From contig JBGTDX010000118.1 in assembly GCA_041748075.1 (NCBI GenBank), forward strand, positions 66,730 through 130,729: 64,000 nt of DNA. Direction: 5' to 3'. Of this stretch, positions 565 through 21,477 are shown in pieces. A program made the position numbers and the translations under genes. How positions within the stretch are numbered: position 1 is the first letter of the stretch; every line of letters starts with the position of its first letter. The notes under the pieces are model-generated. The model was given only the letters and a program-made list of their open reading frames with translations. It ran no database searches and was not told the origin of the DNA. This DNA is from Thermoanaerobaculia bacterium. GTDB taxonomy: Bacteria > Acidobacteriota > Thermoanaerobaculia > Gp7-AA8.

Positions 565-1368
565 ATGTCCGCACTGTTCGCCCTCTACGCCTTCGCCCTG
601 GGCGCAATCATCGGCAGCTTCCTCAACGTCGTCATCCACCGCTACCCACGCGAAGAGTCGATCGTCTTTCCGCCGAGCCGCTGCGGGTACTGTCAGGCGC
701 GCATCAAACCGTACGACAACATTCCCATCCTCAGCTATCTGATCCTCCTGGGCCGCTGCAGAAGTTGCGGCGTCGCGTTCGGCTCGAGATACGTGATGAT
801 CGAGCTGGCAAACGCGCTCTTCTACCTCGCGATCTTTTTTCACACCGGGGTTAGCCTCGCCTTCATCCCGCTCGCGGCCATCGTCTCGATGACGATCGTG
901 CTCATCTACATCGATCTCGACATCCAGATCCTCCCCGACGTCATCGATCTTCCTGGAATTCTGATCGGTCTTCTGATTGGATGGATGGGGCTCGGAACGC
1001 TCTATCCACAGCTCATCCTGGCAGTCGATCTGCTCGACTCGATCTTCGGCGCAGCATTCGGCGCCTCACTCCTCCTGGCGATCGGAATGGTGTACAAGCT
1101 TCTCCGGAAGATCGAGGGCATGGGACTCGGCGACGTGAAGATGCTCGCGATGATCGGGGCGGTCACCGGCTGGAGGGCCATCTTCCCGCTGCTGTTTCTC
1201 GCCTCGGTCGGAGGCGCGATCATCGGGTTGATCGTCGCGGCCCGGCAGCGCCACGAGAATCTTCAGTTCCCCATCCCGTTCGGGGTTTTTCTCGGTCTGG
1301 CCACGTTGGCCGTGATCTTCTTTGGAAATACACTCTTCACATGGTACGGATCACTTCTCGGCGGATGA
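565..1368 (+). CDS. pilD: Prepilin peptidase (A24 family, PilD/GspO).
   Basis: 267 aa: MSALFALYAFALGAIIGSFLNVVIHRYPREESIVFPPSRCGYCQARIKPYDNIPILSYL... with the Cys-rich zinc motif (CxxC...CxxC) and multiple TM helices typical of PilD. Confidence 0.9.
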   Translation: MSALFALYAFALGAIIGSFLNVVIHRYPREESIVFPPSRCGYCQARIKPYDNIPILSYLILLGRCRSCGVAFGSRYVMIELANALFYLAIFFHTGVSLAFIPLAAIVSMTIVLIYIDLDIQILPDVIDLPGILIGLLIGWMGLGTLYPQLILAVDLLDSIFGAAFGASLLLAIGMVYKLLRKIEGMGLGDVKMLAMIGAVTGWRAIFPLLFLASVGGAIIGLIVAARQRHENLQFPIPFGVFLGLATLAVIFFGNTLFTWYGSLLGG

Positions 1369-3256: not shown

Positions 3257-3457
3257 CACCGGTACCGGAGGTTCATTAGAAGGTACCACCGCCCAGAACC
3301 CTGGAACGTCGCTCCGGCCGCACATGTGTTACTTTTTCTCCCATAAACGCCATCACGACTCGACGTCGTCGCTTGCAACATGAGTTCAAACATTGACAAC
3401 AATACACTTATCTTCCACAAACTCCATGGCATCCCGACTGCAATAGAGCAGCCCCAC

Positions 3458-3991
3458 ATGAATCGTCTAATCAGGTTTCACCGCCGGGATGCCCGCGGCT
3501 TCTCCCTCCCGGAGTTGCTCGTAGTGATTGCGATCATGGGACTGATCGTCATGGTGTCCGTTCCGAATTTCATCGCCTACTTCCAGTCGAACAAGGTCAA
3601 GACGTCGTTGCGGGTATTCAACACCGACGTCCGGGCTGCGCGGCAGCGAGCGGTAACGCGGAACAGCTTCACCAGAGTCACTTTCAGAACCGGCGTGGGA
3701 GCCAATCAGTATCGAGTGTTCGAGTCGCTCGATCGCGGAGCCACATGGGCAGTTGCGCCTTACATCTCGAGGGAGCTCGAAGAGCCGGTCTACTTCGAGA
3801 GCACCGGCTTCGGCGACACGGCGCCGGCCACTCCCGACACCGCCCCCGACATCGTCTTCCGCAACGATGGCGCCGTCCAGGATCATCCCGGTGGAACAGA
3901 CGATTACGTAGTCATCCGGACGACGCACACCATTCCGAGAAACGAATTCACGATACGAATCAGTGCGGCCGGCGCCGTGAGAACTGATTAG
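3458..3991 (+). CDS. Minor pseudopilin (GspH/FimT-like).
   Basis: Prepilin signal RDARG|FSLPELLVVIAIMGLIVMVSVP. ORF track frame 3380..3991. ATG 3458 gives a 14-aa leader; the in-frame ATG 3380 would give a 40-aa leader. Confidence 0.7.
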   Translation: MNRLIRFHRRDARGFSLPELLVVIAIMGLIVMVSVPNFIAYFQSNKVKTSLRVFNTDVRAARQRAVTRNSFTRVTFRTGVGANQYRVFESLDRGATWAVAPYISRELEEPVYFESTGFGDTAPATPDTAPDIVFRNDGAVQDHPGGTDDYVVIRTTHTIPRNEFTIRISAAGAVRTD

Positions 3992-4005: not shown

Positions 4006-4548
4006 ATGCGCTGCATAGTTGCCAGCTCACGCGGGAGTCACAGCGAACGGGGATTCAATCTCGTCGAAGTCATCATTGCCATGGCTCTGCTGGGAACCGT
4101 CCTTCTGGGAATCCTCTCGCTGTTCTTCTTCGGTCGCAACAACGTCTACAGCGGCAAACAGATGACGCATGCAGTCTCGGTCGCTACACATGTCCTCGAA
4201 GATCTTTCAGGGCTGACGTACACCCAGATCGAAGCGGCGATGGATTTCGAGATCGGAACCGACACACTTGCGAGTCATACGGTAAACGGCGTGACGTATG
4301 CCAGCGCACTGAGAAGAACCACAGACGCTCTCGGTGAAGACGCCGATCCTCCGAACTTCCTCGACAAGTGGAAGGCCGAGCTCGATACAAAAGTGTCCGA
4401 GGGTGCTGTGGACCTGATCTTCACGCCCGATCTCAGCGACCGGGTCCTGCGCATCGACGTGATCGTCACCTGGAAGGAACCGGGAAGGATCAGTGTCGGT
4501 GGGAACAAGCGTCAGATCATCATGGAAACGGCCAAGATCCGCCACTGA
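4006..4548 (+). CDS. Minor pseudopilin (PilV/GspI-like).
   Basis: MRCIVASSRGSHSERG|FNLVEVIIAMALLGTVLLG is a prepilin N-terminal motif. A GAGGAGA Shine-Dalgarno sits 6 nt upstream. Confidence 0.7.
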   Translation: MRCIVASSRGSHSERGFNLVEVIIAMALLGTVLLGILSLFFFGRNNVYSGKQMTHAVSVATHVLEDLSGLTYTQIEAAMDFEIGTDTLASHTVNGVTYASALRRTTDALGEDADPPNFLDKWKAELDTKVSEGAVDLIFTPDLSDRVLRIDVIVTWKEPGRISVGGNKRQIIMETAKIRH

Positions 4549-4564: not shown

Positions 4565-7500
4565 ATGCAGCGAACAGCACGTCGTTCCGAGCGGGGATTC
4601 AGCCTCGTCGAAGTCATCGTGGCCACCGCGATTTTCGTGGTCGTCCTCGTCGCAGCGCTGATGCTCTACGACCGGAGCACGAACACGTTCAGGCGAGGGA
4701 TCGAGGCTGCCGACACCCAGCAGAACACCCGAGTGTCGTTCGACAAGCTGCTCACCGATCTCCGCATGGCGGGATTCGATTACGATCGTGATGGGTTCCC
4801 GAGTGCCGCAGCAGGCACCGTCTGGACCGCCAGCCGCGTTTACGCGGTCGGGGACATCGTCGTACCCGTAGTCGTAAACGGCTTCAATTACCGCGCGACC
4901 ATAGGCGGAACCAGTGGCGGTTCGGAGCCGACCTGGCCGACCACCATCGGAGACCTTCGCGTGGATGGCGGGGTTACCTGGGAAACCATTGCCGGCACGA
5001 GCCAGGCGCAGCAGCCCGATGAACAGATCGAATACGTCGGTCCCTCGGCCATCACCATCCGCGCGAACTTCGACTACAACATCACTCCCAACCAGGGACG
5101 CGAACCGGCACTGGAATCCGCATCCTTTCCCGTCGTAACGACCGGAAACCACGAGATCGTCACCTACGCCCTCCGCTCAGCTGACGCCTCCAAGAACATA
5201 CAATCGGTTCAGTTCTTCGCCGACGTAAACGCTTCGGGTGCTCCGAGTCGTACCGCTTATCCCGGCGGAAGTTCCGAGCGGCAGATTACGATTCCAAACG
5301 TCGACCTCACGAACGCCAACCCACCGTATACACTCCACCGTTTCACACTCGCGGAGGACGGTTCGGTGGTCTCGAGCCCTGTAGCCGAAAATATCCGCAG
5401 CCTCAATTTCTTTTACTTTCAGGACACACAGGGGCTGACTCCTCTGGAAGACCTGTCGACCACCCCGGTGGCTTTCCCGCAGGGGAGCGCCACGCTCGGC
5501 GGAAGCGGGCAGTACAATCCTGCAAGCCCGGCGACGCTGATTCCGTGGCGGACGATGCGCTCGCGAGTCCGCTCGGTTCGGGTCGAGCTTGTGGGTATGT
5601 CGAGCCAGCCCGACCCGGCTTATACCGATACAGATCCCATCGTCGCGACGCGCAACTTCAGAAAATATCGCCTCGAAACTCTCATCGTCCCGCGCAACAT
5701 CGGAAAACGTGGCCTGCGCGAGTTCGACACGATGCCTCCAGGCGCGCCCGTACTCCAGTCGGCGTGCTTCGGACACTGCAGCATCGCGAAGCTCACCTGG
5801 CAGGCTCCGTCCACGGGAGGCGCGGTCGAACAGTACGCCATTCTTTACGACACCGACCTGGTCGGAGGTTTCGCGAGCAGTTTCATCGTCAGCGCGACCA
5901 CCTTTGCGTACGTAGTGCTGCCCGACCCCGCTGCCACGTACTACTTCGCCGTCCAGGCGCTCAACGGCTACGGCGCGTCGCCGGAGTCAAACGTACTCAG
6001 CGGCATACCGCTCAACCGGACCAAGCCAGACGCAATCGATGACATCACGGTGAACACCACAGCGAGCGGCATCCAGCTCAGTTGGCAGAAGCCTGTTACC
6101 AATGACGTCGGCGGGCTGACCTGCGTGCCGAGCGGCAGCCCTTCGGAAGAAATCCCAGCCCAGGAGAATATCCGTTACCGAATCTACCGCTCGATAGGAG
6201 ATGACATGTTCACGGCAGATTCGACCACCAGGATCTGGGACGAGAACTCCACCGGCGGCAACCTGGCCTACAACCCCGGAAGCGGAACGGTCACCTTCAC
6301 CGACAGCACGGCCGCCAACTGCGTGGACTACTACTATCGGATCGAAGCCCTCGATCGATGTGGCGACGACAGCAGCCTCAATGCCTCCGGATTCACCGGC
6401 GTGTCGGACATCTTCCCAGCTGCAGGATCTCCGGGAACATTTGCCCGCAACAACCCGAGCACTCCGCCGCAGCCCATGGCGCCTTCAACGCTCCAGGTAC
6501 TTTTGCCAGCGTCTAACTGTGATGCATTCAACTGCGAAATCTATCTCGAGTGGCCACGGGTGACCCTGGACATTTCCTCGAATCCTGTGGCGGTCGACGA
6601 GTACATCATCAGGCGTCGGAGACTGCTGGCGGGCGTTTATGTCGTGGAGCCGCCCGATGATGTTCCCTCGAGCGGCCACTCGGCGACGTCAGGCCCGACC
6701 ATAAGCGTCAGGCAGGATGTTCCCGCACCGGTTGCGGGAGTGTTCGACATGTACGAATACACCGTCTTCGCAACGAACTGCTCCACCTGGAGCGATCCCT
6801 CGCTCACGGTCAGGTTCCCCTGCGCCTGGTCCGGCGGATCGCCGGTGATCACCAACCAGCCGGTAGTCGGGGTATCCGGCGCCCTGGAAGGTAATGGGGA
6901 TGCCGGCTCGCCGTTCCTGGTGTTCGGCTCGCCCTCGTTCAGCATCAGCGGCATAACAAGCACGGTTAACGTGACAGCATTCGTCTATCTGGGGGGAACC
7001 CAGATTGAAGGGCCTCTCACGAGAACCGGCCCCGGCGCGCTGCCGATCTCCACCGATCCCATTGACGATGGGACGATCTACAGCCTGTCCCTGCAGTTCG
7101 TCGATTCCGGCGGTTGCTCGGTCAACCAGACGATCTATTTCGTCGGAAGCAGCAGCAACTGCTGCCTTGCAATTGAAAGCATCACGGGAGCTGTCGCATC
7201 CAGTGCCGAAGTCACAGTCACGTTCAGAAATCAGTGCTCTGCGAACGTGGCGATGAATGCGAGTGGGGCCGTTCGCATGCAGTGGACCGATGACCGATTC
7301 CCCAATCCATCTGTCCGGCTCGGCGGCATCACCTATCCCCGCGAAGGGGGCGGAACCATTGCCGGCACCGTCGCGACGAATACGGAGGGAAGCGTCGTTT
7401 CCCATAGCGCTCCGGGAGGAGCTGACGTGACCATCGAGGCGGGAACAACGTACGAGATCAAATTCTCGTTCACTAGAGACCTGAACGTCTCGACCTCTCC

Positions 7501-7588
7501 CATTCTGGATCTCTGCATCTCGTACGGTTCTTCTCCCATTACAGTGTGCAACATCATCAACGACGGCTTCGGGACTACGTGTCCGTAA
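4565..7588 (+). CDS. Giant minor pilin/pseudopilin (about 1007 aa; PilW/GspJ position) with fibronectin-III-like domains. Putative tip adhesin.
   Basis: ORF 4493..7588 trimmed to ATG 4565: MQRTARRSERG|FSLVEVIVATAIFVVVLVAALML. Internal W...Y...YY.A.N..G.S blocks (e.g. LTWQAPSTGGAVEQYAILYD...YYFAVQALNGYGAS and LSWQKPVTND...YYYRIEALDRCGD) look like FN3 domains. Confidence 0.7.
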   Translation: MQRTARRSERGFSLVEVIVATAIFVVVLVAALMLYDRSTNTFRRGIEAADTQQNTRVSFDKLLTDLRMAGFDYDRDGFPSAAAGTVWTASRVYAVGDIVVPVVVNGFNYRATIGGTSGGSEPTWPTTIGDLRVDGGVTWETIAGTSQAQQPDEQIEYVGPSAITIRANFDYNITPNQGREPALESASFPVVTTGNHEIVTYALRSADASKNIQSVQFFADVNASGAPSRTAYPGGSSERQITIPNVDLTNANPPYTLHRFTLAEDGSVVSSPVAENIRSLNFFYFQDTQGLTPLEDLSTTPVAFPQGSATLGGSGQYNPASPATLIPWRTMRSRVRSVRVELVGMSSQPDPAYTDTDPIVATRNFRKYRLETLIVPRNIGKRGLREFDTMPPGAPVLQSACFGHCSIAKLTWQAPSTGGAVEQYAILYDTDLVGGFASSFIVSATTFAYVVLPDPAATYYFAVQALNGYGASPESNVLSGIPLNRTKPDAIDDITVNTTASGIQLSWQKPVTNDVGGLTCVPSGSPSEEIPAQENIRYRIYRSIGDDMFTADSTTRIWDENSTGGNLAYNPGSGTVTFTDSTAANCVDYYYRIEALDRCGDDSSLNASGFTGVSDIFPAAGSPGTFARNNPSTPPQPMAPSTLQVLLPASNCDAFNCEIYLEWPRVTLDISSNPVAVDEYIIRRRRLLAGVYVVEPPDDVPSSGHSATSGPTISVRQDVPAPVAGVFDMYEYTVFATNCSTWSDPSLTVRFPCAWSGGSPVITNQPVVGVSGALEGNGDAGSPFLVFGSPSFSISGITSTVNVTAFVYLGGTQIEGPLTRTGPGALPISTDPIDDGTIYSLSLQFVDSGGCSVNQTIYFVGSSSNCCLAIESITGAVASSAEVTVTFRNQCSANVAMNASGAVRMQWTDDRFPNPSVRLGGITYPREGGGTIAGTVATNTEGSVVSHSAPGGADVTIEAGTTYEIKFSFTRDLNVSTSPILDLCISYGSSPITVCNIINDGFGTTCP

Positions 7589-7599: not shown

Positions 7600-9801
7600 A
7601 TGATCGAAAGGCCAACACGCACTTCCGAAGAACGCGGCTCTGCGCTTCTGGTGAGCCTCATGGTGATGGTCGGTCTGTCTCTTCTGGGACTCGGCTTCGT
7701 CACCGCTTCCGAGACCGAGAGCGCCATCTCGGCGAACCAGCGAAACTATACCCAGGCCCTCTCGATCGCGGAAACCGGCGTGAAGGCCGCGGTCGAATGG
7801 TTTCAGAACCCGGAATCGATGGCTGACATCGGTCTGCTCCCTGTCAATCACGTCAACCTCAAGACCACCAGAATTCTGGGAGGAACTGGCATCGGATATT
7901 ACAAGGGAAGCGGGGGCGATCTTTTCGACCGTCCGTTCAAACCTGCTCCGGTCGACCGCCTCTACGGTGACGTCGACCATGCGGACGTGAAGATCGACCG
8001 CAATAGCGTGCAGGGACGCGCGTTTCTCGACGCGTTCAACACCGCCATTCTCGGGAACACTCAGAACGGCGAAGTCACTGAGATCCTCGTTTACGCGCCG
8101 CCGATCGTTGGGGGTACGCTCAATGGTGACGGCTTCTGGGAGGGAGGAACGCGCTACGGCCTGGCGACCATCCGCGCGACTTCGACCATTTTCCGCGACC
8201 GCGTCGCGCGGACGGGCATCATCGCGGAGCGCTCCGTGACGGTCGTCGTCACCGAATGGCCGTTCCCCGGACCTCAGGGCCCCGTGCAGTCGAATGCCAG
8301 TATCTCCACGGCGGGCAACTTCGGCGTCCACTGGGGAAAGATGACTTCCTCCGAGTCGATGAATATCTTCAACTCGTGGGCAGCCCTCCCCTGGTTCAAC
8401 GCCTACGACCGGATCACGATCGACCGCGGCTACCCGACCCAGAACAAGTGCGGTCCTTTCGATGATCAGCCGTGCGAAGCGCAGTATCTGCCGCTCGCGA
8501 GCGGCACGGATCTCCCCACCGACCACGACTGGCTCGCTGAGATGGTCGGACGCACGGTCGTCGATCCATGGTGGGAAGCGCGTTCGCGCATGAACATCAC
8601 CAACATGGGGGGCGACACCACGCCAATCCCGTACGCCAAAATCGACCACCTCGTCAACGACGTAGTGAGCACTCCCCGGGCCGGCTACTCCGGCTGGGGA
8701 CAGTTCCAGGACCGCAACGACTACCCCAACCACAAGGAAGTCATCTTCCCCCGCATCGACTACGACTTCTGGAAGGAGATCGCCATCCAGGGCAGCTCCA
8801 GCGGCCAGGAAGGTATCTATTATCTCCGCCCGACCGGCGGGATCAACTACACGGACGGATCCACGACCAAGAACTTCGGCGAATGGGTCAACGTGAACCG
8901 CGACGGCAACCCCGGCTTCTACTTCTTCGACACGATGAACGGTCTCAATCCGCAGGGTCCGGGAGCGCCCGGAACTCTTGCGCCCGCAATCCTTCTGAAC
9001 TCCGGCGTCGATGGACCAGGCTTCCGGATGGAAGGGTTCATTTATCTCAATGTCGCGAGCTATCAAAGTACGGGCCTTTCCCCACCGACACAGTGGGTTC
9101 CGTTTCCAGGAGAGCCGTACCGGGACGTCGGCTATCAGCGCATCAATCCAGGCACCGGTGAACCGATCGCCGGCCAGGCGAACTTCGACGCCAACAACGG
9201 GCAGTGGGACTACCAGGATGTCAACGACAATGGACGCTTCGACGTGTTCGTAAATAATCTCGTCGCGAAAACGAGACCTTCGGGAGGAGGTTCATTCTTT
9301 CCCTACCTTCCGGTGGCCCACTACGTGGGATGCAACCCGGGAGTGAACTGCTCGGAGCCGCATGAGCCATACCTGAACATCATTTATCCCACGACCGCCA
9401 AAACGGGTGGGATGGGAGGAAGCCCGACCCCCGTGGTCGTTGGCTGGCAGCCGCAGGGCGCTCAAACGCGGAGGGCGAAGGCCCGGCCGGGCGGGGTGAC
9501 ACCGGCCTGCCCGTCCGACAACACCTTCAACGCAAACTGCACATCCAATGGCTATGACCGTGACGGCGGCTACACGAACGACCTGCAACTGCTCCTCAAC
9601 GGCGTGCTCTATGTCGAGGGCGACTTCCTCGGTACGGCCGGTAACGGCGAGTACTTCGGTTCCGTCCTCGTCGAGGGCGACTTCAGCTCGACCGGCACCT
9701 CGGAGGTGTGGTTCGACGAGCGGCTGATCAAAGGCGACTGGCCGCCTCCGGAGTTCAACTTTCCGCGCGTCTACATCAGCGCAATGAAGACCGACGAATA
9801 A
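7600..9801 (+). CDS. PilX-N-domain pseudopilin (PilX/GspK-like), 733 aa.
   Basis: ORF 7546..9801 trimmed to ATG 7600. The N-terminus ERGSALLVSLMVMVGLSLLGLGFVTASETESAISANQRNYTQALSIAETG matches the PilX N-terminal domain pattern, followed by a large Gly/Asn/Asp-rich C-terminal region. Confidence 0.7.
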   Translation: MIERPTRTSEERGSALLVSLMVMVGLSLLGLGFVTASETESAISANQRNYTQALSIAETGVKAAVEWFQNPESMADIGLLPVNHVNLKTTRILGGTGIGYYKGSGGDLFDRPFKPAPVDRLYGDVDHADVKIDRNSVQGRAFLDAFNTAILGNTQNGEVTEILVYAPPIVGGTLNGDGFWEGGTRYGLATIRATSTIFRDRVARTGIIAERSVTVVVTEWPFPGPQGPVQSNASISTAGNFGVHWGKMTSSESMNIFNSWAALPWFNAYDRITIDRGYPTQNKCGPFDDQPCEAQYLPLASGTDLPTDHDWLAEMVGRTVVDPWWEARSRMNITNMGGDTTPIPYAKIDHLVNDVVSTPRAGYSGWGQFQDRNDYPNHKEVIFPRIDYDFWKEIAIQGSSSGQEGIYYLRPTGGINYTDGSTTKNFGEWVNVNRDGNPGFYFFDTMNGLNPQGPGAPGTLAPAILLNSGVDGPGFRMEGFIYLNVASYQSTGLSPPTQWVPFPGEPYRDVGYQRINPGTGEPIAGQANFDANNGQWDYQDVNDNGRFDVFVNNLVAKTRPSGGGSFFPYLPVAHYVGCNPGVNCSEPHEPYLNIIYPTTAKTGGMGGSPTPVVVGWQPQGAQTRRAKARPGGVTPACPSDNTFNANCTSNGYDRDGGYTNDLQLLLNGVLYVEGDFLGTAGNGEYFGSVLVEGDFSSTGTSEVWFDERLIKGDWPPPEFNFPRVYISAMKTDE

Positions 9802-9811
9802 ACTTACATGT

Positions 9812-9850
9812 GGCAGGGGACTCCGCTCCCCTGCCTGTTCCGTTCATTCC
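9812..9850 (+). terminator. Intrinsic terminator after the PilX-like gene.
   Basis: Stem ggcagggga / tcccctgcc with loop ctccgc, followed by the T-rich ttccgttcattcctttg. Confidence 0.45.
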
Positions 9851-9887
9851 TTTGTATGAACGAAGCTGGAGCGATGACGATCGTCTC

Positions 9888-9955: not shown

Positions 9956-9968
9956 TGACGCACGAGGT

Positions 9969-10052: not shown

Positions 10053-10110
10053 ACTTGCTCCCTTGGCACCGCGCGAGTCTACGATGCGTGGAGCGCGCAC
10101 GATCCTCTCG

Positions 10111-12162: not shown

Positions 12163-13371
12163 ATGCCTAGCTTCGTGTTCAGGGTTGGCACGCCCGACGG
12201 CCAGATCATCGAGCGCCAGGTCGACGCGATCGACCTCCCCAGCGCGAAGGAGGAGATCCAGCGGGCCGGCCTCCATGTCTTTCACGTCAAGCAGCAGGGC
12301 CTGTCATTCTCGCTGAACCCGTTCCGCTCACGAAAGATCGTCTCGACCGAGGGCTTCCTGCTCTTCAATCAGGAGCTGCTGGCTCTGGTCAGGGCAGGCC
12401 TGCCGGTGATCCAGTCATTCGACATCATGCTCGAGCGGCAGAGGAATCCTCGGTTCAGGCAGGTCCTCACGGAGATCCGCGACAAGGTCAAGTCGGGCGT
12501 TGCGATCTCGGACGCTTTCGCCGCATACGGCCGGGCATTCCCTCCGATCTATTCGACCTCGATCCGCGCGGGCGAGCGTGCAGGCGACCTCGAGGGGGTT
12601 CTCCGCCGCTTTCTCCGCTACCAGAAGATCATCGTCAACCTCCGAAAGAAAGTCACCTCGGCGCTGATCTACCCGGCGGTCCTGGTGACTCTTTCCGTCG
12701 TGATGGTCTTCATCATGCTCACGTACGTCATCCCGAAGTTCGCGGAGTTCTACGAAGGCTTCGGGGCCGATCTCCCGTGGGCGACCCAGCTGACTATCAC
12801 CATTTCGACGATCCTCAGGGAAAACATCCTCATCGTTTTCGGATCCCTGGCCGCTGTCATATTCCTGGTGCGGCGGTGGAGCCTCAGCGTCACCGGGGGG
12901 ATCACGTACGACCGGCTCAAGCTGAAGATTCCGCTCGTAGGCGGCATTCTTCACCGCTTCGCGCTTCTCCAGTTCACCCAGTCGCTGGGCACGCTTCTGG
13001 CGGGGGGAACGCCCATGGTTCCGTCGATCGAGATCGCCGCCCTGTCGATCACGAACCGTCACGTTTCGGCCCGCGTCGCCGCCATCGCAAAGAACGTCAT
13101 GGAGGGTGAAACGCTGTGGAGGTCGCTCGAGCAGACCGGGGTCATCAGCGACATGGCGGTCGAAATGATCAAGGTCGGCGAGTCGAGCGGCGCCCTCAAT
13201 GAAATGCTGGCCAACGTGAGCGAGTTCTACGATGAGGAAATCGAATCGCGGTTGAACCGGATGATCACGATGATCGAGCCGATCATTCTTGTCGGGCTCG
13301 GCATCGTCATTGCCGGGCTCCTCTATGCCTTCTACCTGCCGCTCTTCCAGTTGACGAACGTACAGAATTGA
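12163..13371 (+). CDS. pilC: Type IV pilus / T2SS inner-membrane platform protein (PilC/GspF).
   Basis: 402 aa with T2SSF-family repeats and three TM segments. Confidence 0.9.
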   Translation: MPSFVFRVGTPDGQIIERQVDAIDLPSAKEEIQRAGLHVFHVKQQGLSFSLNPFRSRKIVSTEGFLLFNQELLALVRAGLPVIQSFDIMLERQRNPRFRQVLTEIRDKVKSGVAISDAFAAYGRAFPPIYSTSIRAGERAGDLEGVLRRFLRYQKIIVNLRKKVTSALIYPAVLVTLSVVMVFIMLTYVIPKFAEFYEGFGADLPWATQLTITISTILRENILIVFGSLAAVIFLVRRWSLSVTGGITYDRLKLKIPLVGGILHRFALLQFTQSLGTLLAGGTPMVPSIEIAALSITNRHVSARVAAIAKNVMEGETLWRSLEQTGVISDMAVEMIKVGESSGALNEMLANVSEFYDEEIESRLNRMITMIEPIILVGLGIVIAGLLYAFYLPLFQLTNVQN

Positions 13372-13378
13372 TCAATCC

Positions 13379-14992
<1,614 letters not shown>

Positions 14993-14994
14993 CT

Positions 14995-15894
14995 ATGGCC
15001 AGATCATTTCCACCAGACGTCATCATCTGCGATCAGGATTCGCTCATGTTCGCCCGTTTCGACGGCGGCAAGTCGATGCCCCGGATCGTGACGGCGAAGA
15101 CGTACGCGCTCGATGACGATGTGTTTGCACCGGGGATCGTGACGCCCGCTCTCGCGCGGCCGGAACAGCTCACCGCGGTTCTCGGGCGCATGAAAAAGGA
15201 GCAGGGACGGCTCGATCGCGTTTCGCTGCTGCTGCCCGATTCCTGGTTCCGCATCAACCTGATTGACATTCCGACGCTGCCGGAGAAAAAGGCGGAGGCG
15301 GATGAAGTCGTGCGCTGGTCTCTGAAGAAATCCACGCCGATCCGGCCTGAAGAGTTCCGCCTGGCCTATCAGACCGTGGACAAGACGAGCTCCGGATCAC
15401 GGGTGCTCGTGGTCGCCGCTCTCGAGAAGACGCTCGCCGGAATCGAAAAGGCATTCGCCGAGACACAGCTCACTCCGGTGCTCATCGAGCCGGTCGGGAT
15501 GAACATCTGGAACAGCATCGCAGTACGAGAGCAGCCGGCCAACGATGACAGAATCTTCTTCTATGTCCGGAATCGGGAATTCACCACCGCGGTCTTCAGG
15601 AATGGCACGCCGCTGTTCTTCCGTTCGCGAGTGATGAGCGACGACCGGACGCTCCTTCAGGAGATCCGGCTTTCAGCGTCGTATTTCAAATCGAATCTCG
15701 AGATCACGCACGTGGAAAAATGCTACGTGGCGGGCCAGCAGTTCAACGATCAGGTATCGTCCACGATCTCCGAGGAGCTCGGCGCGACGACCTCCAGAGT
15801 CACGCTCGACAGCTACGTCGAATCATCTCCCTCGGTTGATACGCGCGCGATCGAGGCCGAGCTCACAGCCTGCGCAGGAGTGTTCACCGCTTGA
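14995..15894 (+). CDS. PilM/GspL-like cytoplasmic assembly protein (actin-like fold).
   Basis: ORF 14764..15894 trimmed to ATG 14995, 3 nt after the pilB stop. Position and size (299 aa) are consistent with PilM. Similarity is modest. Confidence 0.6.
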   Translation: MARSFPPDVIICDQDSLMFARFDGGKSMPRIVTAKTYALDDDVFAPGIVTPALARPEQLTAVLGRMKKEQGRLDRVSLLLPDSWFRINLIDIPTLPEKKAEADEVVRWSLKKSTPIRPEEFRLAYQTVDKTSSGSRVLVVAALEKTLAGIEKAFAETQLTPVLIEPVGMNIWNSIAVREQPANDDRIFFYVRNREFTTAVFRNGTPLFFRSRVMSDDRTLLQEIRLSASYFKSNLEITHVEKCYVAGQQFNDQVSSTISEELGATTSRVTLDSYVESSPSVDTRAIEAELTACAGVFTA

Positions 15895-16469
15895 AGACGC
15901 TTCACCTGAATCTCGCTTCGCGCCCGTATCGCGATTACACGCCTGTCTATGCCGTGGCGATCGTGCTCGCTCTCGTGACGGGCTTTCTCATGATCAACAA
16001 CATCCAGACCGCGTACCGTTACTTCGTCAACACCGAGGAAACGCGCGGAGAGATCGCCCGGGTCGAGGCCGAGACTGCTGCCGAAACCCGCGCGGCGGAA
16101 ACGCTGGAGCGATCCGCAGAGGGGATCAATGTACGGGCGCTCGCGATGGAGACGGCGTACATCAACGCGCAGATCGCCGAGCGCGCGTTCTCCTGGAGCA
16201 ATCTTCTCGACAACATGGAAAGGGTACTTCCCCGCAACGTCCGGCTGATGACGCTCAATCCCGACATTCAACCCGACGGAGATGTGAGACTCACCATCAC
16301 CGCCAGAGCCAAGGGGAGCGACGGCATGGTCACCATGCTGCGGAATATGCTCGGCGATCCTCACTTCGCCGATCCGTTCCCGGGAACCGACTCTCAGAAT
16401 GATGACGGCTCCTACAGCTTCAGTCTTTCGACGACCTATCGTCCGGATCCGCGGGGGCTGACGCGATGA
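15891..16469 (+). CDS. PilN-like (bitopic, N-terminal LNLASRP motif then a TM helix).
   Basis: MKTLHLNLASRPYRDYTPVYAVAIVLALVTGFLMINN. TTG start overlaps the upstream stop. Confidence 0.7.
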   Translation: MKTLHLNLASRPYRDYTPVYAVAIVLALVTGFLMINNIQTAYRYFVNTEETRGEIARVEAETAAETRAAETLERSAEGINVRALAMETAYINAQIAERAFSWSNLLDNMERVLPRNVRLMTLNPDIQPDGDVRLTITARAKGSDGMVTMLRNMLGDPHFADPFPGTDSQNDDGSYSFSLSTTYRPDPRGLTR

Positions 16470-17056
16470 TCTGGCGCGAGAAAAGGAGCCTGCTGATTGT
16501 TCTGGGCGTGCTGCTTGCGATCAATGTGGCATTCTTCCTGACATACAGGGTTCGATACCAGCAGAGGATCCAGGCGCTCGACGTGACGCTCGATCAGGCG
16601 AACGCGGCCCTGGAAGCCGCCCGCAGCCGGAAGGCGGCCGCAGAGCAGACTCTCACGGGTTACAAGTCGACGACCGCCGACATTCAGAGGATCTACAACG
16701 AAGTCTGGTCCACGCCGCAACGGCGGCTCACGTCCATGATCCTGGAGATTCGCGACCTGGAAAATCGCAGCAGAATGGTGCCGCGCTCCACGAGCTTCAC
16801 GCAGCAGGTCGAGAAGAAAGAATTCGGAACGCGGGCCATGACGATGAACTTCATGGTCCGGGGCACCTATGCACAGGTGCGCCAGTTCATCAACCTGCTC
16901 GAGTTGTCCCAGAACTTTGTGGTGATCGATCAGATCATGCTGGCAGACCCGACCGATGAAACCCAGCTCCTGAATCTGAACATTCAGATCAAGACACTCT
17001 TCCACGAGCCACTCGATCCGTCAGAGCAGTCGGCGCGGCGCGGAGGAACCTCCTGA
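16466..17056 (+). CDS. PilO-like protein (TM helix plus coiled coil).
   Basis: MIWREKRSLLIVLGVLLAINVAFFL followed by a coiled-coil region. 4-bp overlap with PilN. Confidence 0.65.
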   Translation: MIWREKRSLLIVLGVLLAINVAFFLTYRVRYQQRIQALDVTLDQANAALEAARSRKAAAEQTLTGYKSTTADIQRIYNEVWSTPQRRLTSMILEIRDLENRSRMVPRSTSFTQQVEKKEFGTRAMTMNFMVRGTYAQVRQFINLLELSQNFVVIDQIMLADPTDETQLLNLNIQIKTLFHEPLDPSEQSARRGGTS

Positions 17057-17736
17057 TGGACTGGTCGAACTGGAAGACCTGGCTCCTGCTCAGCGGCGTT
17101 GTGCTCGCCCTGTTCGCGATCTATGTCTTCGCGTCTCCCGACGCTCCCCTGCAGTTGCAGAATGAGCCCGAGGCCGTGCGTCCCGTTGCCGCGTCGCGGC
17201 AGGTCGCGGGCGGGGCAACGCGCTCGATTGCGCCTCCGGGCGTGGAACCGGTGCGCATCGATCTGCTCGAGCCGGCCAGCGGAAGCTTCAGCAGCGACCG
17301 CAACCTGTTCCGTTATGTAGAACCGCCTCCGCCTCCTCCCGCTCCAACACCCAGACCTCCCGCTCCCCCGCCGGATCGCGACAAGGACGGCATTCCAGAC
17401 TTCCAGGACAATTGTCCCGATGTATACAACCCGGACCAGGCGGACATCGATCGCAATGGCGTAGGTGATGCATGTCAGGAGGGGCCTATCGTTCCTCCAC
17501 CGCCGCCGCCGCCGCAACCGCCGGCGTTCAACTACACTTACATGGGAAGCTTCGGGACGCCCGCGCGGCCCATCGCGGCATTCTCGCGCGACGGACAGAT
17601 CGTCAACGTGAGGGTGGGCGAGACCTTCGGCGGACAATTCATCCTCCGGAACATAGGGATCGAGTCGGTGGACATCGGGTTCGTCGGATTTCCGCCGGAT
17701 GCGCGAAAGAGAGTCGCCGTCGGAACGCCTCCGTGA
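17056..17736 (+). CDS. PilP/GspC-like protein carrying a thrombospondin type-3 (Ca-binding) repeat and polyproline tracts.
   Basis: N-terminal TM helix. PPPPPPAPTPRPPAPPP, then DKDGIPDFQDNCPDVYNPDQADIDRNGVGDAC (a TSP3 / OmpA-N-like DxDxDGxxDxxD motif), then PPPPPPPQPP and a C-terminal beta-rich domain. Confidence 0.55.
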   Translation: MDWSNWKTWLLLSGVVLALFAIYVFASPDAPLQLQNEPEAVRPVAASRQVAGGATRSIAPPGVEPVRIDLLEPASGSFSSDRNLFRYVEPPPPPPAPTPRPPAPPPDRDKDGIPDFQDNCPDVYNPDQADIDRNGVGDACQEGPIVPPPPPPPQPPAFNYTYMGSFGTPARPIAAFSRDGQIVNVRVGETFGGQFILRNIGIESVDIGFVGFPPDARKRVAVGTPP

Positions 17737-17804
17737 CGTTTCGTCACGCTTGAGCGTCTGAGCTGTTATAGCCGAGCCACATGATCGATCGAGAGAAAAC
17801 ATTC

Positions 17805-20252
17805 ATGAACCGAAACAGACTGAAAGTCGCAACGACGCTACTTCTGCTGCTGCCTCTGCTTTCGTGTACGAGCTTCCGCTCGTATCAGAGCGCGAAAGAC
17901 TTCGAAGAGCAGGGCAAGTGGGACGAGGCGATCGTCGAATACCAGAAGGCACTCGAGGTCGATCCCAACAACGTCCGCTACAAAATGGCGCTCGACAGGA
18001 GCAAGCTGGAAGCTTCGCGCGCACACTTCGAGAAGGGCAAATCGCTCCGCGCGGCTGCAATCGAAGCGCGAAACCGGGGAGAGGCTGCGCGAGCGCTGCA
18101 GCTCAACGAGCTCGCGCTGGTCGAGTTCGAGCTCGTCGTCAGACTGGATTCCACAAACCAGTTTGCCGCGGTCGAGTATGCGAAAGTCGTCTCCGCGATT
18201 CAGGAAGCAACGGCCGCAGCAAACGGTCCGACCTTCGAAGAGCGCAAGCGCGCGGTCGTCACCAAGGCGCAGCCGCCACAACTCAACCCAACCTCGCTCG
18301 AGCCGATCTCACTGTCGTTCCCCCGCCCCACTCCAATCAAGGACATCTACCGTTCCCTCGGCAATGCGTTCGGCATCAACATCATCTTCGATCAGGGGGT
18401 CAAGGATGAAGAGCGCATCTCGATCGAGCTGCGGGACGTCACCGCGCAGCAGGCGCTCGAGCGCGTCATGCAGGCCGGCAATCAGTTCTACAAGGTCCTC
18501 GACGAGAAGACGCTCATCGTCATCCCCGACACACCACAGACCCGGCGTGACTACGAAGATCTCGTCATCCGTACGTTCTACCTTTCCAACGGAGATGCCG
18601 AGCAGGTGACCAACGTCGTCAGGACGATGATCGAAGCACGGAACGTATTTCCGCTCAAAGCGCTCAACGCGATCACGATCCGCGACACCGCGGACAAAGT
18701 GCGGATCGCAGAGAAGATCATCGAAGCAAACGACAAGGCGCGTGCAGAAGTCGTCGTGCAGGTCGAGCTTCTGCAGGTCGACGCCCGCAAGCTGCGCGAC
18801 ATCGGCCTCAAACTCGGCGCCTACAGCACGAGTGGCGCGTTGACCGACGCGGCCGGCGGCACGATCGGAAGCCTCCCGTACGGGGAGCTGGGCAACATCG
18901 CGCTGAACGATTTCAACTTCACGATTCCCACGCTCAGCTATACGCTCCTGAAGAACAACACCGACGCGCGGCTTCTCGCACGGCCGCAGCTGCGGATCTC
19001 CGAGGGTGAGGACGCAACGCTGCACATCGGCCAGAAACAGCCCATTCCCGTCTCGACGCTCTTCACGAACGTCGGCGTCGGCGGCGGATTCAACCAGGGT
19101 CCCATCACCTCGTTCCAGTACCAGGACGTAGGAATCAAGATCGCGATCACGCCGCGCGTCCATCACAACCGCGAAGTCTCGTTGAAGCTCACCGTCGAGG
19201 TGTCGAACATCGCGGGATTCGTTCCAGGCGGCGGAGAAAACTCTCCCGATCAGCCGATCATCGGAACCCGCACCATCCAGTCGACCATCCGACTCAAGGA
19301 CGGTGAGACGAACCTTCTCGCAGGCCTGATCCGGGAAGACGACTCGATCACCAAAGACGACATCCCCTTCCTGTCTGACCTTCCGGTCATCGGACGGCTG
19401 TTCAGCAGGGAACAGAACAACGTAGCGACCACGGACGTGGTCCTCACCATGACCCCGCACATCATCCGCATCCCCGACATCACGGACGAGGATCTCGCGC
19501 CGATGTGGGTCGGAACGACGAACAATCTGACCTTCCGCGGGGTTTCGCCGCGGCTCGAGTCAAACGTTCAGGCGGATCCGTTCAACAACGTGCCCCGCAC
19601 GACCACCGCGACACAGGAGAACCCGCCGCCGTCGCAGGAGTTCTTCGCCCCGGGCCAGGTGCCGGCGACGCAGCCTCCGCCCTCATCACCCGTTCCACCC
19701 GCATCCGGACCGAGCGACGTCTTCCGCCAGCAGCCGCAGCCACCGCCTCCCGGAGGCGGAGCCAATGAGCCGCAGAATCCAGGTGTTCAACCGCCGCCGC
19801 CGGGAGCGTCGTCGATGAACCAAGAAGACTACCGGCTCAAATTCGCCCCGCGAATCGCTCCGCAGCCGTCGAGAATCGCGCTCGGTCCCGGCGAAGAAAA
19901 GGTCTGGTCGATCGTTGCGATGGATGTAGCGGAGCTTGCGATCCCGCAGATGGTGCTGCACTACGACCCGCTCGCGATGGACATCGCTGGCTTTTCGCTG
20001 GGCACGGCACTCGAGATCAACCCTGAAGTTCCGCCGGTCGTATCGATCGACCGGGCGAATGGAACGATTCGCATCAGCTCGTCCGACGGCAGCATGCTCC
20101 AGTTCCGCTCCGGCGGTGAGGTCGTCGCCTTCCGGGTGCGGGGCGGCGTAACAGGCGACACGATGCTCGTGATCGAACCGCTCGCGTTCTCGCAACGCAA
20201 CGGCGAGCGCGTCGACGTTGCCGTCGCCGGCGGCTCGGCCCGGGTGGAGTAA
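17805..20252 (+). CDS. Secretin (PilQ/GspD family) lipoprotein with an N-terminal TPR-like segment and a about 260-aa C-terminal extension.
   Basis: Lipobox LLLLLPLLSC. Secretin core LLARPQLRISEGEDATLHIGQKQPIP...IIGTRTIQSTIRLKDGETNLLAGLI...DIPFLSDLPVIGRLFS...VVLTMTPHIIR. The Pro-rich linker and extra beta domain that follow are detailed in the secretin finding. Confidence 0.85.
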   Translation: MNRNRLKVATTLLLLLPLLSCTSFRSYQSAKDFEEQGKWDEAIVEYQKALEVDPNNVRYKMALDRSKLEASRAHFEKGKSLRAAAIEARNRGEAARALQLNELALVEFELVVRLDSTNQFAAVEYAKVVSAIQEATAAANGPTFEERKRAVVTKAQPPQLNPTSLEPISLSFPRPTPIKDIYRSLGNAFGINIIFDQGVKDEERISIELRDVTAQQALERVMQAGNQFYKVLDEKTLIVIPDTPQTRRDYEDLVIRTFYLSNGDAEQVTNVVRTMIEARNVFPLKALNAITIRDTADKVRIAEKIIEANDKARAEVVVQVELLQVDARKLRDIGLKLGAYSTSGALTDAAGGTIGSLPYGELGNIALNDFNFTIPTLSYTLLKNNTDARLLARPQLRISEGEDATLHIGQKQPIPVSTLFTNVGVGGGFNQGPITSFQYQDVGIKIAITPRVHHNREVSLKLTVEVSNIAGFVPGGGENSPDQPIIGTRTIQSTIRLKDGETNLLAGLIREDDSITKDDIPFLSDLPVIGRLFSREQNNVATTDVVLTMTPHIIRIPDITDEDLAPMWVGTTNNLTFRGVSPRLESNVQADPFNNVPRTTTATQENPPPSQEFFAPGQVPATQPPPSSPVPPASGPSDVFRQQPQPPPPGGGANEPQNPGVQPPPPGASSMNQEDYRLKFAPRIAPQPSRIALGPGEEKVWSIVAMDVAELAIPQMVLHYDPLAMDIAGFSLGTALEINPEVPPVVSIDRANGTIRISSSDGSMLQFRSGGEVVAFRVRGGVTGDTMLVIEPLAFSQRNGERVDVAVAGGSARVE

Positions 20253-20263: not shown

Positions 20264-20737
20264 ATGTTCCGAAAGGTTAACGGAGAAAACGGATTCACAG
20301 TCGCCGAGCTCATTACGGTCGTGGCAATCATCGGCCTGCTCGCGGGGATGGCGATTCCGGTCGCAAAGTTCGGATTCCAGAGGCAGAAGGAGATCGAGCT
20401 CCGGAACAGACTTCGCAAGATCACCGATGCGATCGACCGCTACCACGACCTGCGGGTCAAGGGACTGATCAAAGAGCAGGTAACCCTCGGACAGGGCGAG
20501 TATCCGAAAGATCTTCAGCAGCTTGTCGAAGGCGTCGAGTTGATGGACGGAAAGAAAGTAAAGTTCCTGCGCGAGCGCGATCTGATCGACCCGATGACCG
20601 GCAGAAAAGAATGGTTCACCAGATCGAATACCGACGACTTCGATTCCATGAGCTCCGACAACAACAACGTCTTCGAAGTGCGATCGACCTCGACGAAACT
20701 CTCGCTGGACGGCAAGACGCGGTACAACGAATGGTGA
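20264..20737 (+). CDS. GspG/PulG-like type IV pilin (pilin 1).
   Basis: MFRKVNGENG|FTVAELITVVAIIGLLAGMAIPV is a canonical 10-aa leader plus N-methyl-Phe helix. Confidence 0.75.
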   Translation: MFRKVNGENGFTVAELITVVAIIGLLAGMAIPVAKFGFQRQKEIELRNRLRKITDAIDRYHDLRVKGLIKEQVTLGQGEYPKDLQQLVEGVELMDGKKVKFLRERDLIDPMTGRKEWFTRSNTDDFDSMSSDNNNVFEVRSTSTKLSLDGKTRYNEW

Positions 20738-20742
20738 AACTG

Positions 20743-21324
20743 ATGCCTGAAACTCGACGTGACGGTTGTGGGTTGTGGGTTGTGGGTTGTGGGACCGCCC
20801 GGACCCCACACAAACCCCAACTCACAACTCACAACTCACAACTCACAACCGGCCGGGCGGCGGCACCCACAACCCACAACCCACAACCCACAACCGGTCG
20901 GGCGGCCGGCTTCACCCTCATCGAGCTTCTCGTGGTCGTCACCATCGTCGGACTGCTCGCGGGCATCGCCGTCGTCAACGTCCTCGGGGCGCAGCGGAAG
21001 GCGGCGGAGAACGTGCTGAAAGCGGATCTCGCCCTGATGCGTCAGGGCATCGACAACTTCTACGCCGACAAACAGCGGTATCCCTCATCGCTCGAAGAGC
21101 TCGTCGAGGCGAAGTACATGCGCAGGATCCCCGTCGATCCGATCACGAAATCGGCCGACACATGGATCCCTGTCACCGAGGAAGTCGAGTTCGATGGAGG
21201 CGGCTTCGGGGGCAGTTTCGGCAGTGATTTCGATTATGACGCGCCCACGGGCCCCGGCATCGCCGACGTGAAGAGCGGCGCCGAGGGAGAAACCCTCGAT
21301 GGCGTGCCGTACGGGGAACTGTAA
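20743..21324 (+). CDS. GspG-like pseudopilin (pilin 2) with an unusually long, repeat-encoded leader. Start uncertain (ATG 20731 or 20743, or TTG/GTG 20770/20779).
   Basis: ORF track frame 20611..21324. Mature start ...TTGRAAG|FTLIELLVVVTIVGLLAGIAV at nt about 20908. There is no start codon between the repeat hairpin and the cleavage site, so the leader (about 40-56 aa) reads ...TTHNSQLTT...PTTHNPQPTT through the heptamer arrays. Confidence 0.55.
   Translation: MPETRRDGCGLWVVGCGTARTPHKPQLTTHNSQLTTGRAAAPTTHNPQPTTGRAAGFTLIELLVVVTIVGLLAGIAVVNVLGAQRKAAENVLKADLALMRQGIDNFYADKQRYPSSLEELVEAKYMRRIPVDPITKSADTWIPVTEEVEFDGGGFGGSFGSDFDYDAPTGPGIADVKSGAEGETLDGVPYGEL
20765..20894. repeat. Inverted arrays of heptanucleotide tandem repeats: (GTTGTGG)x4 ... 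(AACTCAC)x4 ... (CCCACAA)x4, forming an imperfect about 40-bp stem hairpin.
   Basis: Arrays seen at 20765-20792, 20819-20846 and 20866-20893. The flanking gaccgcccggacc / ggccgggcggc are also complementary. The whole structure is in-frame inside the leader of pilin 2. Confidence 0.9.
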
Positions 21325-21332
21325 GGTTTAGA

Positions 21333-21477
21333 GAACGGAATGTTGAATGTTGAATGTTGAATGTTGAATGAGCCCGCTTTCAAAGATTCTCGCGTGTGAC
21401 GAATGTTATGGATGCCCGCAGAAAAAACCTGCGCGGACCCATTCAACATTCAACATTCAACATTCAACATTCCGTTC
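21333..21477. repeat. Perfect 38-bp inverted repeat built from (ATGTTGA)x4+ATG and (TCAACAT)x4, separated by a 69-nt loop.
   Basis: gaacggaATGTTGAATGTTGAATGTTGAATGTTGAATG (21333-21370) is exactly complementary to CATTCAACATTCAACATTCAACATTCAACATtccgttc (21440-21477). The only usable start codon of pilin 3 (21368) is the last ATG of the left arm. Confidence 0.95.

Follow-up and report, generated by a model that had tools for sequence, protein, structure and literature searches.

How does a protein that begins like a minor pilin come to be 1007 amino acids (aa) long? The question is raised by a gene at positions 4565 to 7588 of a 64,000-nucleotide (nt) stretch of contig JBGTDX010000118.1 from a Thermoanaerobaculia bacterium (hereafter the window, to which all coordinates refer), described in a sequence-only reading as a pilin N terminus fused to a candidate pilus-tip adhesin. 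We found the gene to be intact and its product to be, by position and probable fold, a J-class (GspJ/PilW type) minor pilin whose head carries an insert resembling the carbohydrate-binding modules (CBM) of families 5 and 12, and whose C-terminal part is predicted to form a chain of fibronectin type III (FN3) or immunoglobulin (Ig)-like domains. We hold, with modest confidence, that this protein is the J-position subunit of the H-I-J-K priming and tip complex of a second, divergent filament machine, on which it displays an adhesive stalk.

The gene is a single uninterrupted open reading frame (ORF) on the forward strand, with an ATG at 4565, a TAA at 7586-7588 and no internal stop. A Shine-Dalgarno ribosome-binding site (RBS; GGAGA) lies 7 nt ahead of the ATG, and the preceding gene terminates at 4548. 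A mechanical ORF list offered the GTG at 4493 as an alternative start, yielding 1031 aa; we preferred the ATG, because the GTG overlaps the preceding gene and homologues begin at the equivalent of the ATG, with leaders of approximately 10 residues. An identical protein is present in the database (P0001). A word-indexed search recovered at least 419 relatives, the best 120 of which measure 880 to 1382 aa and mostly cover 86 to 100% of the query. In a window of 61% G+C with many long spurious ORFs in other frames, one could suspect a chance ORF, or two genes merged through a missed frameshift or stop. This is already refuted: 1007 codons run without a stop, at least 120 homologues of the sizes just given are collinear with the query from end to end, invariant residues occur in both halves of the protein (alignment of 60 homologues), and the domain-level confidence of AlphaFold2 (AF2) is high along the whole protein. 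The intact ORF claimed at the outset was thus borne out.

Size is a conserved property of this family. With the head alone as the query, an exhaustive search of 50%-identity representatives gave 4890 proteins with E ≤ 1e-3; 666 of them fell at or below 1e-10, and at least 164 at or below 1e-30. Among the top 150 head matches the usual length is 900 to 1680 aa, and about two dozen are shorter than 600 aa; in several of the latter (P0121, P0161 and P0175, for instance) the match extends to the last residues, as expected for genes truncated at contig ends. Full-length members keep approximately 720 to 1680 aa, and relatives with only 25 to 33% identity still measure 720 to 1090 aa, so that the large size, which had first drawn attention to the gene, holds down to this level of identity. 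When species-representative genomes were scanned, 66 loci emerged, almost all of them labelled as Thermoanaerobaculia or Acidobacteriota metagenome-assembled genomes (MAGs), and the family is almost confined to Thermoanaerobaculia and other Acidobacteriota. A literature search on the pili of Thermoanaerobaculia found nothing relevant to this protein.

We next consider the N terminus, which reads MQRTARRSERG/FSLVEVIVATAIFVVVL (the slash marks the predicted cleavage site) and has Phe at +1 and Glu at +5. It combines a short basic leader ending in Gly with these two residues and a hydrophobic stretch (MQRTARRSERG/FSLVEVIVATAIFVVVLVAAL), as in class III signals. The signal scores above the cut-off of Pfam N_methyl (28.8 bits against 21.2) and above that of NCBIfam TIGR02532 (21.2 bits against 16.3), and G11 (Gly-1) and E16 (Glu+5) are invariant in the alignment of 60 homologues. 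The prepilin signal recognized by eye is therefore genuine. Downstream of it, AF2 predicts an α1 helix of 54 residues (14 to 67) followed by β strands between residues 155 and 374, which is the helix-plus-sheet layout of a pilin, and a separate model of residues 1 to 385 reached a predicted local distance difference test score (pLDDT) of 83.6 and a predicted template modeling score (pTM) of 0.79. The head ends in a conserved junction motif, PRNxGKRGxR, in which R377 and N378 are invariant in the same alignment.

Four lines of evidence, each of them weak, agree in placing this head in the J class. The gene occupies the slot between the I-type and K-type minor pilin genes. A Foldseek search with the head model returned as sole pilin-like PDB neighbors the J-class proteins TTHA1219 (E = 8e-3) and XcpW/EpsJ (E = 0.1 to 0.6), and TTHA1219 of Thermus has been described as GspJ-like (PMC5131608). 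When the family profile was compared by hhalign to the pseudopilins of Escherichia coli K-12, GspJ came first (94%), ahead of GspH (85%), GspI (70%) and GspK (1%), with only the helix aligned. Lastly, Pfam PilW (PF16074) matches the protein below threshold (15.7 to 18.1 bits; cut-off, 26) and gives subthreshold matches at residues ~258 to 359 in 9 of 18 family members, and NCBI annotates the homologue P0008 as a "PilW family protein." The curated gspJ model, TIGR01711, scores 11.7 bits against a cut-off of 64.85, and searches of PDB sequences with the N-terminal profile matched only the CBM-like segment and the pilin helix. We thus class the protein as J by position and probable fold and not as a certified member of the PilW/GspJ family. 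The pilin half of the earlier proposal stands; what precedes the stalk is, however, no arbitrary N terminus but what looks like a complete J-type head of ~385 aa within an H-I-J-K set.

Beyond the head, the C-terminal ~620 residues are predicted to form a chain of five FN3/Ig-like β-sandwich domains (Table 1). Pfam fn3 matches residues 409 to 479 (31.1 bits; cut-off, 25), and the full-length family profile matched titin and receptor FN3 domains among PDB sequences with E values down to 5e-41, a search that was swamped by FN3. The full-length AF2 model (60-sequence alignment; mean pLDDT, 82.8; pTM, 0.50) shows a lower-confidence linker between the head, which extends to ~385, and the first β-sandwich. 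With this model, Foldseek reported E values down to 4e-16 and alignments of 500 to 900 columns with proteins such as gp130/OSMR, LAR, contactins and titin; it returned multi-FN3 proteins only and is uninformative on the head and on the specificity of domains 4 and 5. The equivalents of domain 3 in homologues gave weak FN3_Tor_3rd and Ig_RIMBP2 matches. No Pfam family matched domain 5, and the nine homologues scanned gave only FN3-type matches in their C-terminal domains. The presence of FN3 modules noted earlier was therefore correct, while the count of "at least two" was too low, the model and Foldseek pointing to five β-sandwiches. An FN3 module is approximately 3.5 to 4 nm long, and the stalk would accordingly measure ~18 to 20 nm if extended.

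An additional module appears to be inserted in the head. Residues ~84 to 146 (VWTASRVYAVGDIVVPVVVNGFNYRATIGGTSGGSEPTWPTTIGDLRVDGGVTWETI) show the pattern W-x5-Y-x2-G-x2-V...NG-x2-Y...EP-x-W of CBM5/12. Pfam CBM_5_12 (PF02839) scores 11.7 to 13.8 bits in the protein itself (cut-off, 26.2; E = 0.06 to 0.27) and matches 12 of 18 homologues, with a best E value of 4.9e-5; the profile match to the chitin-binding domain of Bacillus circulans chitinase A1 (1ed7) is weak (E = 0.063). Counted with a local hidden Markov model (HMM), a regular expression for the motif having proved too strict, the module is present in the head of 102 of 120 homologues and missing from the other 18, and a second copy lies inside the last domain in 4 of the 120. 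Residues ~84 to 146 thus form an independent and mobile module that probably binds carbohydrate, as judged from these sequence comparisons. A match of the same segment to a potyvirus coat protein (E ~0.01; N-terminal profile versus PDB) looked spurious and was set aside. The CBM-like module is also found in tandem, in 5 to 9 copies, in unrelated proteins of 592 to 4265 aa (P0208, P0214, P0217, P0221, P0222 and P0226). Among these tandem-repeat proteins, CBM_5_12 scores reach 25 to 28.4 bits, with one protein at or above the cut-off, and others have zero Pfam matches; their modules look like an undescribed divergent branch of CBM5/12.

The two ends of the protein evolve differently. Mean pairwise identity drops monotonically from the α1 helix to the distal domain 5 (Table 1), and homologues differ in the length of their last domain, which measures 119 to 465 aa. 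The extension holds all 16 cysteines, the majority of them at least 90% conserved, including Cys652, Cys657 and Cys739 of domain 3 (92 to 100%) and Cys753, Cys851 and Cys866 of domain 4 (93 to 100%); the penultimate Cys at the C terminus is kept in 78% of the members. Such a gradient and cysteine pattern would be expected if a constrained assembly module carried an exposed, disulfide-stabilized and diversifying distal end. Taken together, the conservation of the cysteines, the identity gradient, the variable length of the last domain and the mobility of the CBM-like module suggest that the extension lies outside the cytoplasm, is exposed and faces a ligand.

The genetic setting is that of a pilin system. 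The order H-I-J-K recurs in loci L001 to L004, which come from distant genomes, and so does the upstream position of the prepilin peptidase gene, which lies ~3 kb upstream of the J gene in the window. PilD/GspO would presumably process the class III signal, and assembly machinery (GspE/F-type ATPase and platform, PilN/O and a secretin) is encoded nearby as well. The H-slot gene gives weaker matches to NCBIfam gspH and cassette protein D. The K-slot gene has its own RBS (AAGGA); in 33 of 36 loci the J gene is directly followed by a K-type gene, which there encodes 638 to 854 aa, and PilX_N is above its cut-off both in the K gene of the window and in 21 of 21 orthologues. The K protein, which is as oversized as its J neighbor, matched no PDB sequence, whether searched singly or as a profile of 21 sequences, and Pfam gave PilX_N only, with nothing for the remaining ~670 residues. 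Its C terminus is strongly conserved (consensus PRVxVTSxxTDQ), V724, T731 and D732 being near-invariant.

This last feature bears on the idea that the 1007-aa protein takes the place of PilY1/PilC. Ellison et al. showed that the K sheet receives its last strand either from PilY1, in trans, or in cis, in proteins of the GspK/CpaL type (PMC13533445). Pfam detected no PilY1/PilC β-propeller domain in the 1007-aa protein or in the scanned cluster genes. The PilY1/PilC family gave no Pfam match at E ≤ 1 in the protein and none at E ≤ 0.1 in nine homologues, and the structural model contains β-sandwiches only. The conserved C terminus of K, the absence of a PilY1 domain and the poorly conserved C terminus of the J protein together suggest that K licenses fiber assembly in cis, and that the J protein contributes display and not licensing. 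Of the PilY1-like role proposed initially, the assembly-licensing part would consequently fall to K.

We then asked which machine this complex belongs to. Its genes give Pfam matches to T2SSF, T2SSE with MshEN, PilN, PilO, TSP_3 and Secretin, and three pilin genes downstream of the secretin (20264..22099, +), for which TIGR01710 (gspG) is the best model at 51.6 bits and Pfam T2SSG scores 19.5 bits, likely encode the fiber subunits. For all four core components the type II secretion system (T2SS) models score better than those of the type IV pilus (T4P): GspE 541 versus PilB 531, GspF 296 versus PilC 275, GspD 149 versus PilQ 105, and GspG 51.6 versus PilA 41; the margins are slight, and every score is under its cut-off. 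By these models the cluster does not qualify as a standard T2SS, GspD, GspE, GspF and GspG being below their cut-offs and no match to GspC, GspL or GspM being found among the cluster genes. Nor does it qualify as a standard type IVa pilus: PilN scores 23.9 bits, just above its cut-off, PilO scores 21, just below, the PilM-like ORF matches no family, and the secretin is without an AMIN domain. A canonical type IVa operon, pilM-pilN-pilO-pilP-pilQ, is present at 47217-52834 (-), with an AMIN-domain secretin (PilQ, 353.8 versus 284) and a PilM_2 match at 2.7e-73, so that two type IV filament machines of this genome lie within 30 kb. Because this operon exists, we consider the machine of the 1007-aa protein, from its gene content, to be a second, divergent, T2SS-leaning type IV filament system. 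The tip position first suggested for the protein is retained as that of a filament tip, which could be a pseudopilus tip, since the machine is not a canonical type IVa pilus.

From these features we infer the following course of events. Prepilin peptidase would cleave after Gly11, as the motif indicates. At the inner membrane, the α1 helix and the J-type head would combine with subunits I and K, and the J-I-K assembly would come to lie at the distal end of the fiber, to judge from the family. The ~620-residue extension would hang from the conserved, flexible PRNxGKRGxR junction as a disulfide-rich chain of five domains, project ahead of the tip and hence pass the secretin first. The distal domain and the CBM5/12-like module of the head could then bind an external ligand, for which an insoluble polysaccharide or some other surface is the most plausible candidate. 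The 733-aa K-type neighbor would form a second bulky tip subunit, probably with its own terminal β strand in cis, and PilY1 would not be needed. Adhesion is in this scheme deduced from anatomy.

Several points weigh against this proposal. The scores behind the J assignment are weak, the Foldseek hits having a template modeling score of ~0.3 at E values of 8e-3 to 0.6 and the PilW and gspJ models lying below their cut-offs, and the hhalign match to GspJ spans only 38 helix residues, so that J is ranked first and the fold is left unproven. The pTM of 0.50 makes the inter-domain orientations of the full-length model unreliable, the CBM5/12 similarity is below threshold in the protein itself, the two distal domains match no family, and every homologue derives from MAGs or metagenomes. 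Finally, the machine leans towards a T2SS, in which case the fiber may never leave the periplasm. The last point defines the main rival, in our view an unlikely one, to the adhesin reading: the protein would sit at the tip of a short periplasmic pseudopilus, and the FN3 chain and CBM-like module would act in the periplasm or the secretin vestibule, where they could recruit or push exoproteins, bind the glycan strands of peptidoglycan or gate the secretin instead of serving as a surface adhesin. The ranking of the T2SS models, the GspG-like fiber pilins beside the secretin, the fact that the window showed no PilT-type retraction ATPase, and the complete pilMNOPQ operon, which already accounts for a type IVa pilus, would all agree with it. 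However, all T2SS scores are below curated cut-offs with small margins, the platform is PilM/N/O-like with no GspC/L/M match among the cluster genes, and the secretin is atypical, with N-terminal tetratricopeptide (TPR) repeats and a long C-terminal extension; moreover, a ~20-nm stalk, a fast-diverging distal domain and a mobile CBM-like module are what one would expect of an externally exposed binding surface.

Two further explanations concern the ends of the protein. The pilin-like N terminus might be merely a membrane anchor or export signal, a role suspected for many N_methyl proteins of Planctomycetes and Verrucomicrobia, with the rest an unpolymerized periplasmic or surface FN3 protein that stays in the inner membrane or is released. 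Weak N-terminal matches to the Verru_Chthon cassette proteins, which are large and have pilin-like N termini, are in line with this, and the conserved basic junction between head and stalk (KRGxR) could in principle be a processing site. We regard it as very unlikely, given a complete and well-conserved J-type head of ~385 aa, which is more than a signal, and a fixed place between I- and K-type genes in every locus examined; in addition, conservation is highest in the head, which would be expected of a part that has to fit partner subunits. At the other end, the extension might replace PilY1 in full, donating its C-terminal strand to K for licensing while also acting as the adhesin. Large non-PilY1 proteins such as MshQ are predicted C-terminal strand donors elsewhere (PMC13533445), the cluster lacks a PilY1 domain, and the penultimate Cys is widely kept. 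Nevertheless, conservation is lowest in the C-terminal domain (identity, 0.23), and the conserved C terminus of K, with V724, T731 and D732, fits a strand acting in cis as in GspK and CpaL, which renders a full replacement highly improbable. A combined reading, in which a T2SS-derived machine of Thermoanaerobaculia has been turned into an attachment organelle whose J and K subunits each carry ~600-residue extensions, with the J stalk (~20 nm, disulfide-locked, and bearing polysaccharide-binding CBM5/12-like modules and a hypervariable distal domain) passing through the secretin and no PilY1-type adhesin, seems rather unlikely to us; if it were true, the cell would be tethered to insoluble substrates, or enzyme secretion would be coupled to substrate contact. 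We keep to the proposal of a J-position tip subunit displaying an adhesive stalk.

Table 1. Features of the 1007-aa protein gene and its cluster, in window coordinates, with mean pairwise identity for the parts of the protein
Feature	Position	Strand	Evidence	Mean pairwise identity
Whole gene, 1007-aa modular GspJ/PilW-class minor (pseudo)pilin	4565..7588	+	Intact ORF, RBS, at least 419 homologues, AF2 pLDDT 82.8	
Leader peptide, residues 1-11 (MQRTARRSERG), ending in Gly-1	4565..4597	+	Sequence, N_methyl, TIGR02532	
Mature N terminus and α1 helix, residues 12-67	4598..4765	+	AF2 helix 14-67, hhalign	0.56 (α1 helix)
CBM5/12-like β module in alpha-beta loop, residues ~84-146	4814..5002	+	Subthreshold Pfam, homologue matches, 1ed7	
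Pilin β-sheet head, GspJ/PilW type, residues ~150-385	5012..5719	+	N-terminal model, Foldseek, subthreshold PilW	0.52 (pilin head)
FN3 domain 1, residues ~390-482	5732..6010	+	Pfam fn3, family profile	0.37
FN3-like domain 2 with insertion, residues ~485-625	6017..6439	+	AF2 strands 495-596, pLDDT ~90; Foldseek	0.31
β-Sandwich domain 3, residues ~626-752	6440..6820	+	AF2 strands 656-751	0.30
β-Sandwich domain 4, residues ~753-872	6821..7180	+	AF2 strands 758-862, pLDDT ~80; weak Big_13	0.26
Distal β-sandwich domain 5, residues ~873-1007, most variable part	7181..7588	+	AF2 strands 868-999	0.23
Prepilin peptidase (PilD/GspO)	565..1368	+	Pfam A24_N_bact 1.9e-31, Peptidase_A24 1.2e-14	
GspH/FimU-type minor pilin (H slot)	3380..3991	+	Pfam N_methyl; GspH 26.1 bits versus 21	
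GspI/PilV-type minor pilin (I slot)	4006..4548	+	N_methyl; weak PilV, XpsI, GspI	
PilX/GspK-type minor pilin (K slot), 733 aa, without Glu5	7600..9801	+	PilX_N 30.8 bits versus 25.5	
Machine genes GspF/PilC, GspE/PilB, PilM-like, PilN, PilO, TSP3-repeat protein, TPR-secretin	12163..20252	+	Pfam	
GspG-like pilin	20264-20737	+	TIGR01710/T2SSG evidence for fiber-pilin group	
Second GspG-like pilin	20743/20908-21324	+	Sequence	
N_methyl protein, third fiber-pilin gene	21368-22099	+	Sequence	

Ahead of the fiber pilin genes that follow the secretin, perfect arrays of heptanucleotides form inverted pairs, immediately preceding the mature N termini of two of these pilins (20738-20915 and 21338-21472). 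At 20764-20895, (GGTTGTG)x4.3 and (ACCCACA)x4.4 flank (CAACTCA)x4.6, and at 21338-21472, (GAATGTT)x4.7 pairs with (CATTCAA)x4.7. The first set would fold into a hairpin of -98.9 kcal/mol (z = -9.0). In the second GspG-like gene it overlaps every possible start codon, or else a leader that is unusually long at 45 to 55 aa; in the pilin gene that comes next, the second set covers both the start and the 40-aa leader. Arrays lying over the only in-frame starts imply either leaders of 40 to 55 aa or silenced pilin genes. Of the 35 perfect tandem arrays found in related loci totalling 1.2 Mb, 32 had a period of 7, with 21 distinct units and several inverted pairs; shuffled controls contained none. 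Arrays were found in L003, L009, L019-L023, L028 (for example, L028:22149-22784), L038-L043, L046, L050, L058, L060 and L065, and several lie ~30 to 70 nt upstream of a pilD that heads the cluster, as at L003:6120-6145. They resemble the STRR repeats of cyanobacteria and heptanucleotide phase-variation tracts, and may act in phase variation or in translational hairpin control of the fiber pilins.

Other genes of the window are worth recording. A further pilin gene (RFRG/FSLIELLVVLSLMGL), GspH/FimT-like by eye, lies at 1-380 (-), divergent from pilD, and continues beyond the start of the window. An insertion of ~2.3 kb (9801-12163) containing a Uma2-family endonuclease and a MazF/PemK toxin (10239-10793, +, and 10842-11240, -, are its notable parts) separates the K-type gene from gspF/pilC; in L001 and L002 just ~450 nt lie between these two genes. 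In the PilP position, a gene (17056-17736, +) encodes a Pro-rich protein with a thrombospondin type 3 (TSP3) repeat, a calcium-binding repeat, and the secretin (17781-20252, +) combines N-terminal TPR repeats with a Pro-rich C-terminal region and a weak cohesin-like match. Directly downstream of the canonical pilQ, 44529-46574 (-) encodes a 681-aa protein of Big_1, IPT/TIG and HYDIN/VesB-like Ig domains, which could be a surface or pilus-associated protein. Finally, the 908-aa protein encoded at 59036-61762 (-) has an unusual architecture, in which the receiver domain of a response regulator and a Ser/Thr protein kinase domain are combined with TonB_C at the C terminus.

How does the 1007-aa protein compare to known systems? 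It shares with GspJ, PilW, XcpW, EpsJ and TTHA1219 the class III signal with Glu5, the long α1 helix and the gene position between I and K. These proteins are, however, only ~160 to 280 aa long, whereas the 1007-aa protein has the CBM5/12-like insert in its head and a tail of 620 aa in five domains. Secreted chitinases, such as B. circulans ChiA1 with its FN3-FN3-CBM12 layout, have FN3 spacers together with CBM5/12 as their accessory parts. The combination of FN3 spacers with a CBM5/12-type module is common to both, but here there is no catalytic domain, and the module is divergent and inserted in a pilin head. The Verru_Chthon cassette proteins A to D (TIGR02596-TIGR02600) likewise come as four-gene, pilin-like sets with one member of more than 1000 aa, and the H, I, J and K genes show weak N-terminal matches to proteins D, B, C and A, respectively. 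These matches are confined to the N-terminal helix and far below the cut-offs (10 to 36 bits versus 51 to 332), and the giant Verru_Chthon member is protein A, which is K-like, not C.

The minor pilins of the H-I-J-K type are usually viewed as small assembly primers, and adhesion in diderm bacteria is usually assigned to PilY1, which is not a pilin. Like the 1007-aa protein, PilY1/PilC is a large protein encoded with minor-pilin genes and is proposed to present variable adhesive modules at the tip. Unlike it, PilY1 has a C-terminal β-propeller and docks to K by strand addition, features seen in neither the sequence nor the model of our protein, whose membership in the PilY1 family was ruled out for want of a propeller. 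Other bulky subunits, namely GspK, ComZ of Thermus, CofB/TcpB, CpaL/TadG and MshQ, sit at or next to K, cap the fiber and have extra domains (PMC8179133; PMC13533445). All of these hold the K or post-K position, whereas here J is the largest subunit and the 733-aa K is a separate protein. A class of environmental Acidobacteriota, known from MAGs only, would place large, fast-evolving and probably carbohydrate-directed modules on J, and also on K. The J protein may represent a surface-attachment factor of abundant soil and sediment bacteria, and one may ask how a tip of such bulk gets through the channel in the outer membrane.

The closest parallel is with modular pilins. Raynaud et al. (2021) defined this group and listed over 1200 of its members, which fall into 264 architectures; FN3 (IPR003961) ranks within the 15 modules most often grafted (PMC8179133). 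Our protein belongs to this group, N_methyl and fn3 both matching above their Pfam cut-offs. The general understanding of type IV filaments is unchanged by it, since the design principle has been published and public annotation already reads prepilin-type or PilW family. In the modelled tip of Streptococcus sanguinis, two bulky modular minor pilins, PilB (von Willebrand A) and PilC (lectin), assemble with an I-like subunit (PMC9934059). The arrangement proposed here parallels this "open wings" PilA-PilB-PilC tip: PilB and PilC, for which a role as tip adhesins has been proposed or shown, also consist of a pilin module, a short flexible linker and grafted non-pilin modules. The S. sanguinis proteins are nevertheless from a monoderm and have one or two extra modules and a size of up to ~50 kDa, while the protein studied here comes from a diderm with a secretin, has six extra modules (one inserted and five appended), is J-class and is paired with a large K. 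It stands for a large, taxon-restricted and unstudied family, and would carry the idea of the modular pilin beyond a Gram-positive pathogen, into a diderm system that has a secretin.

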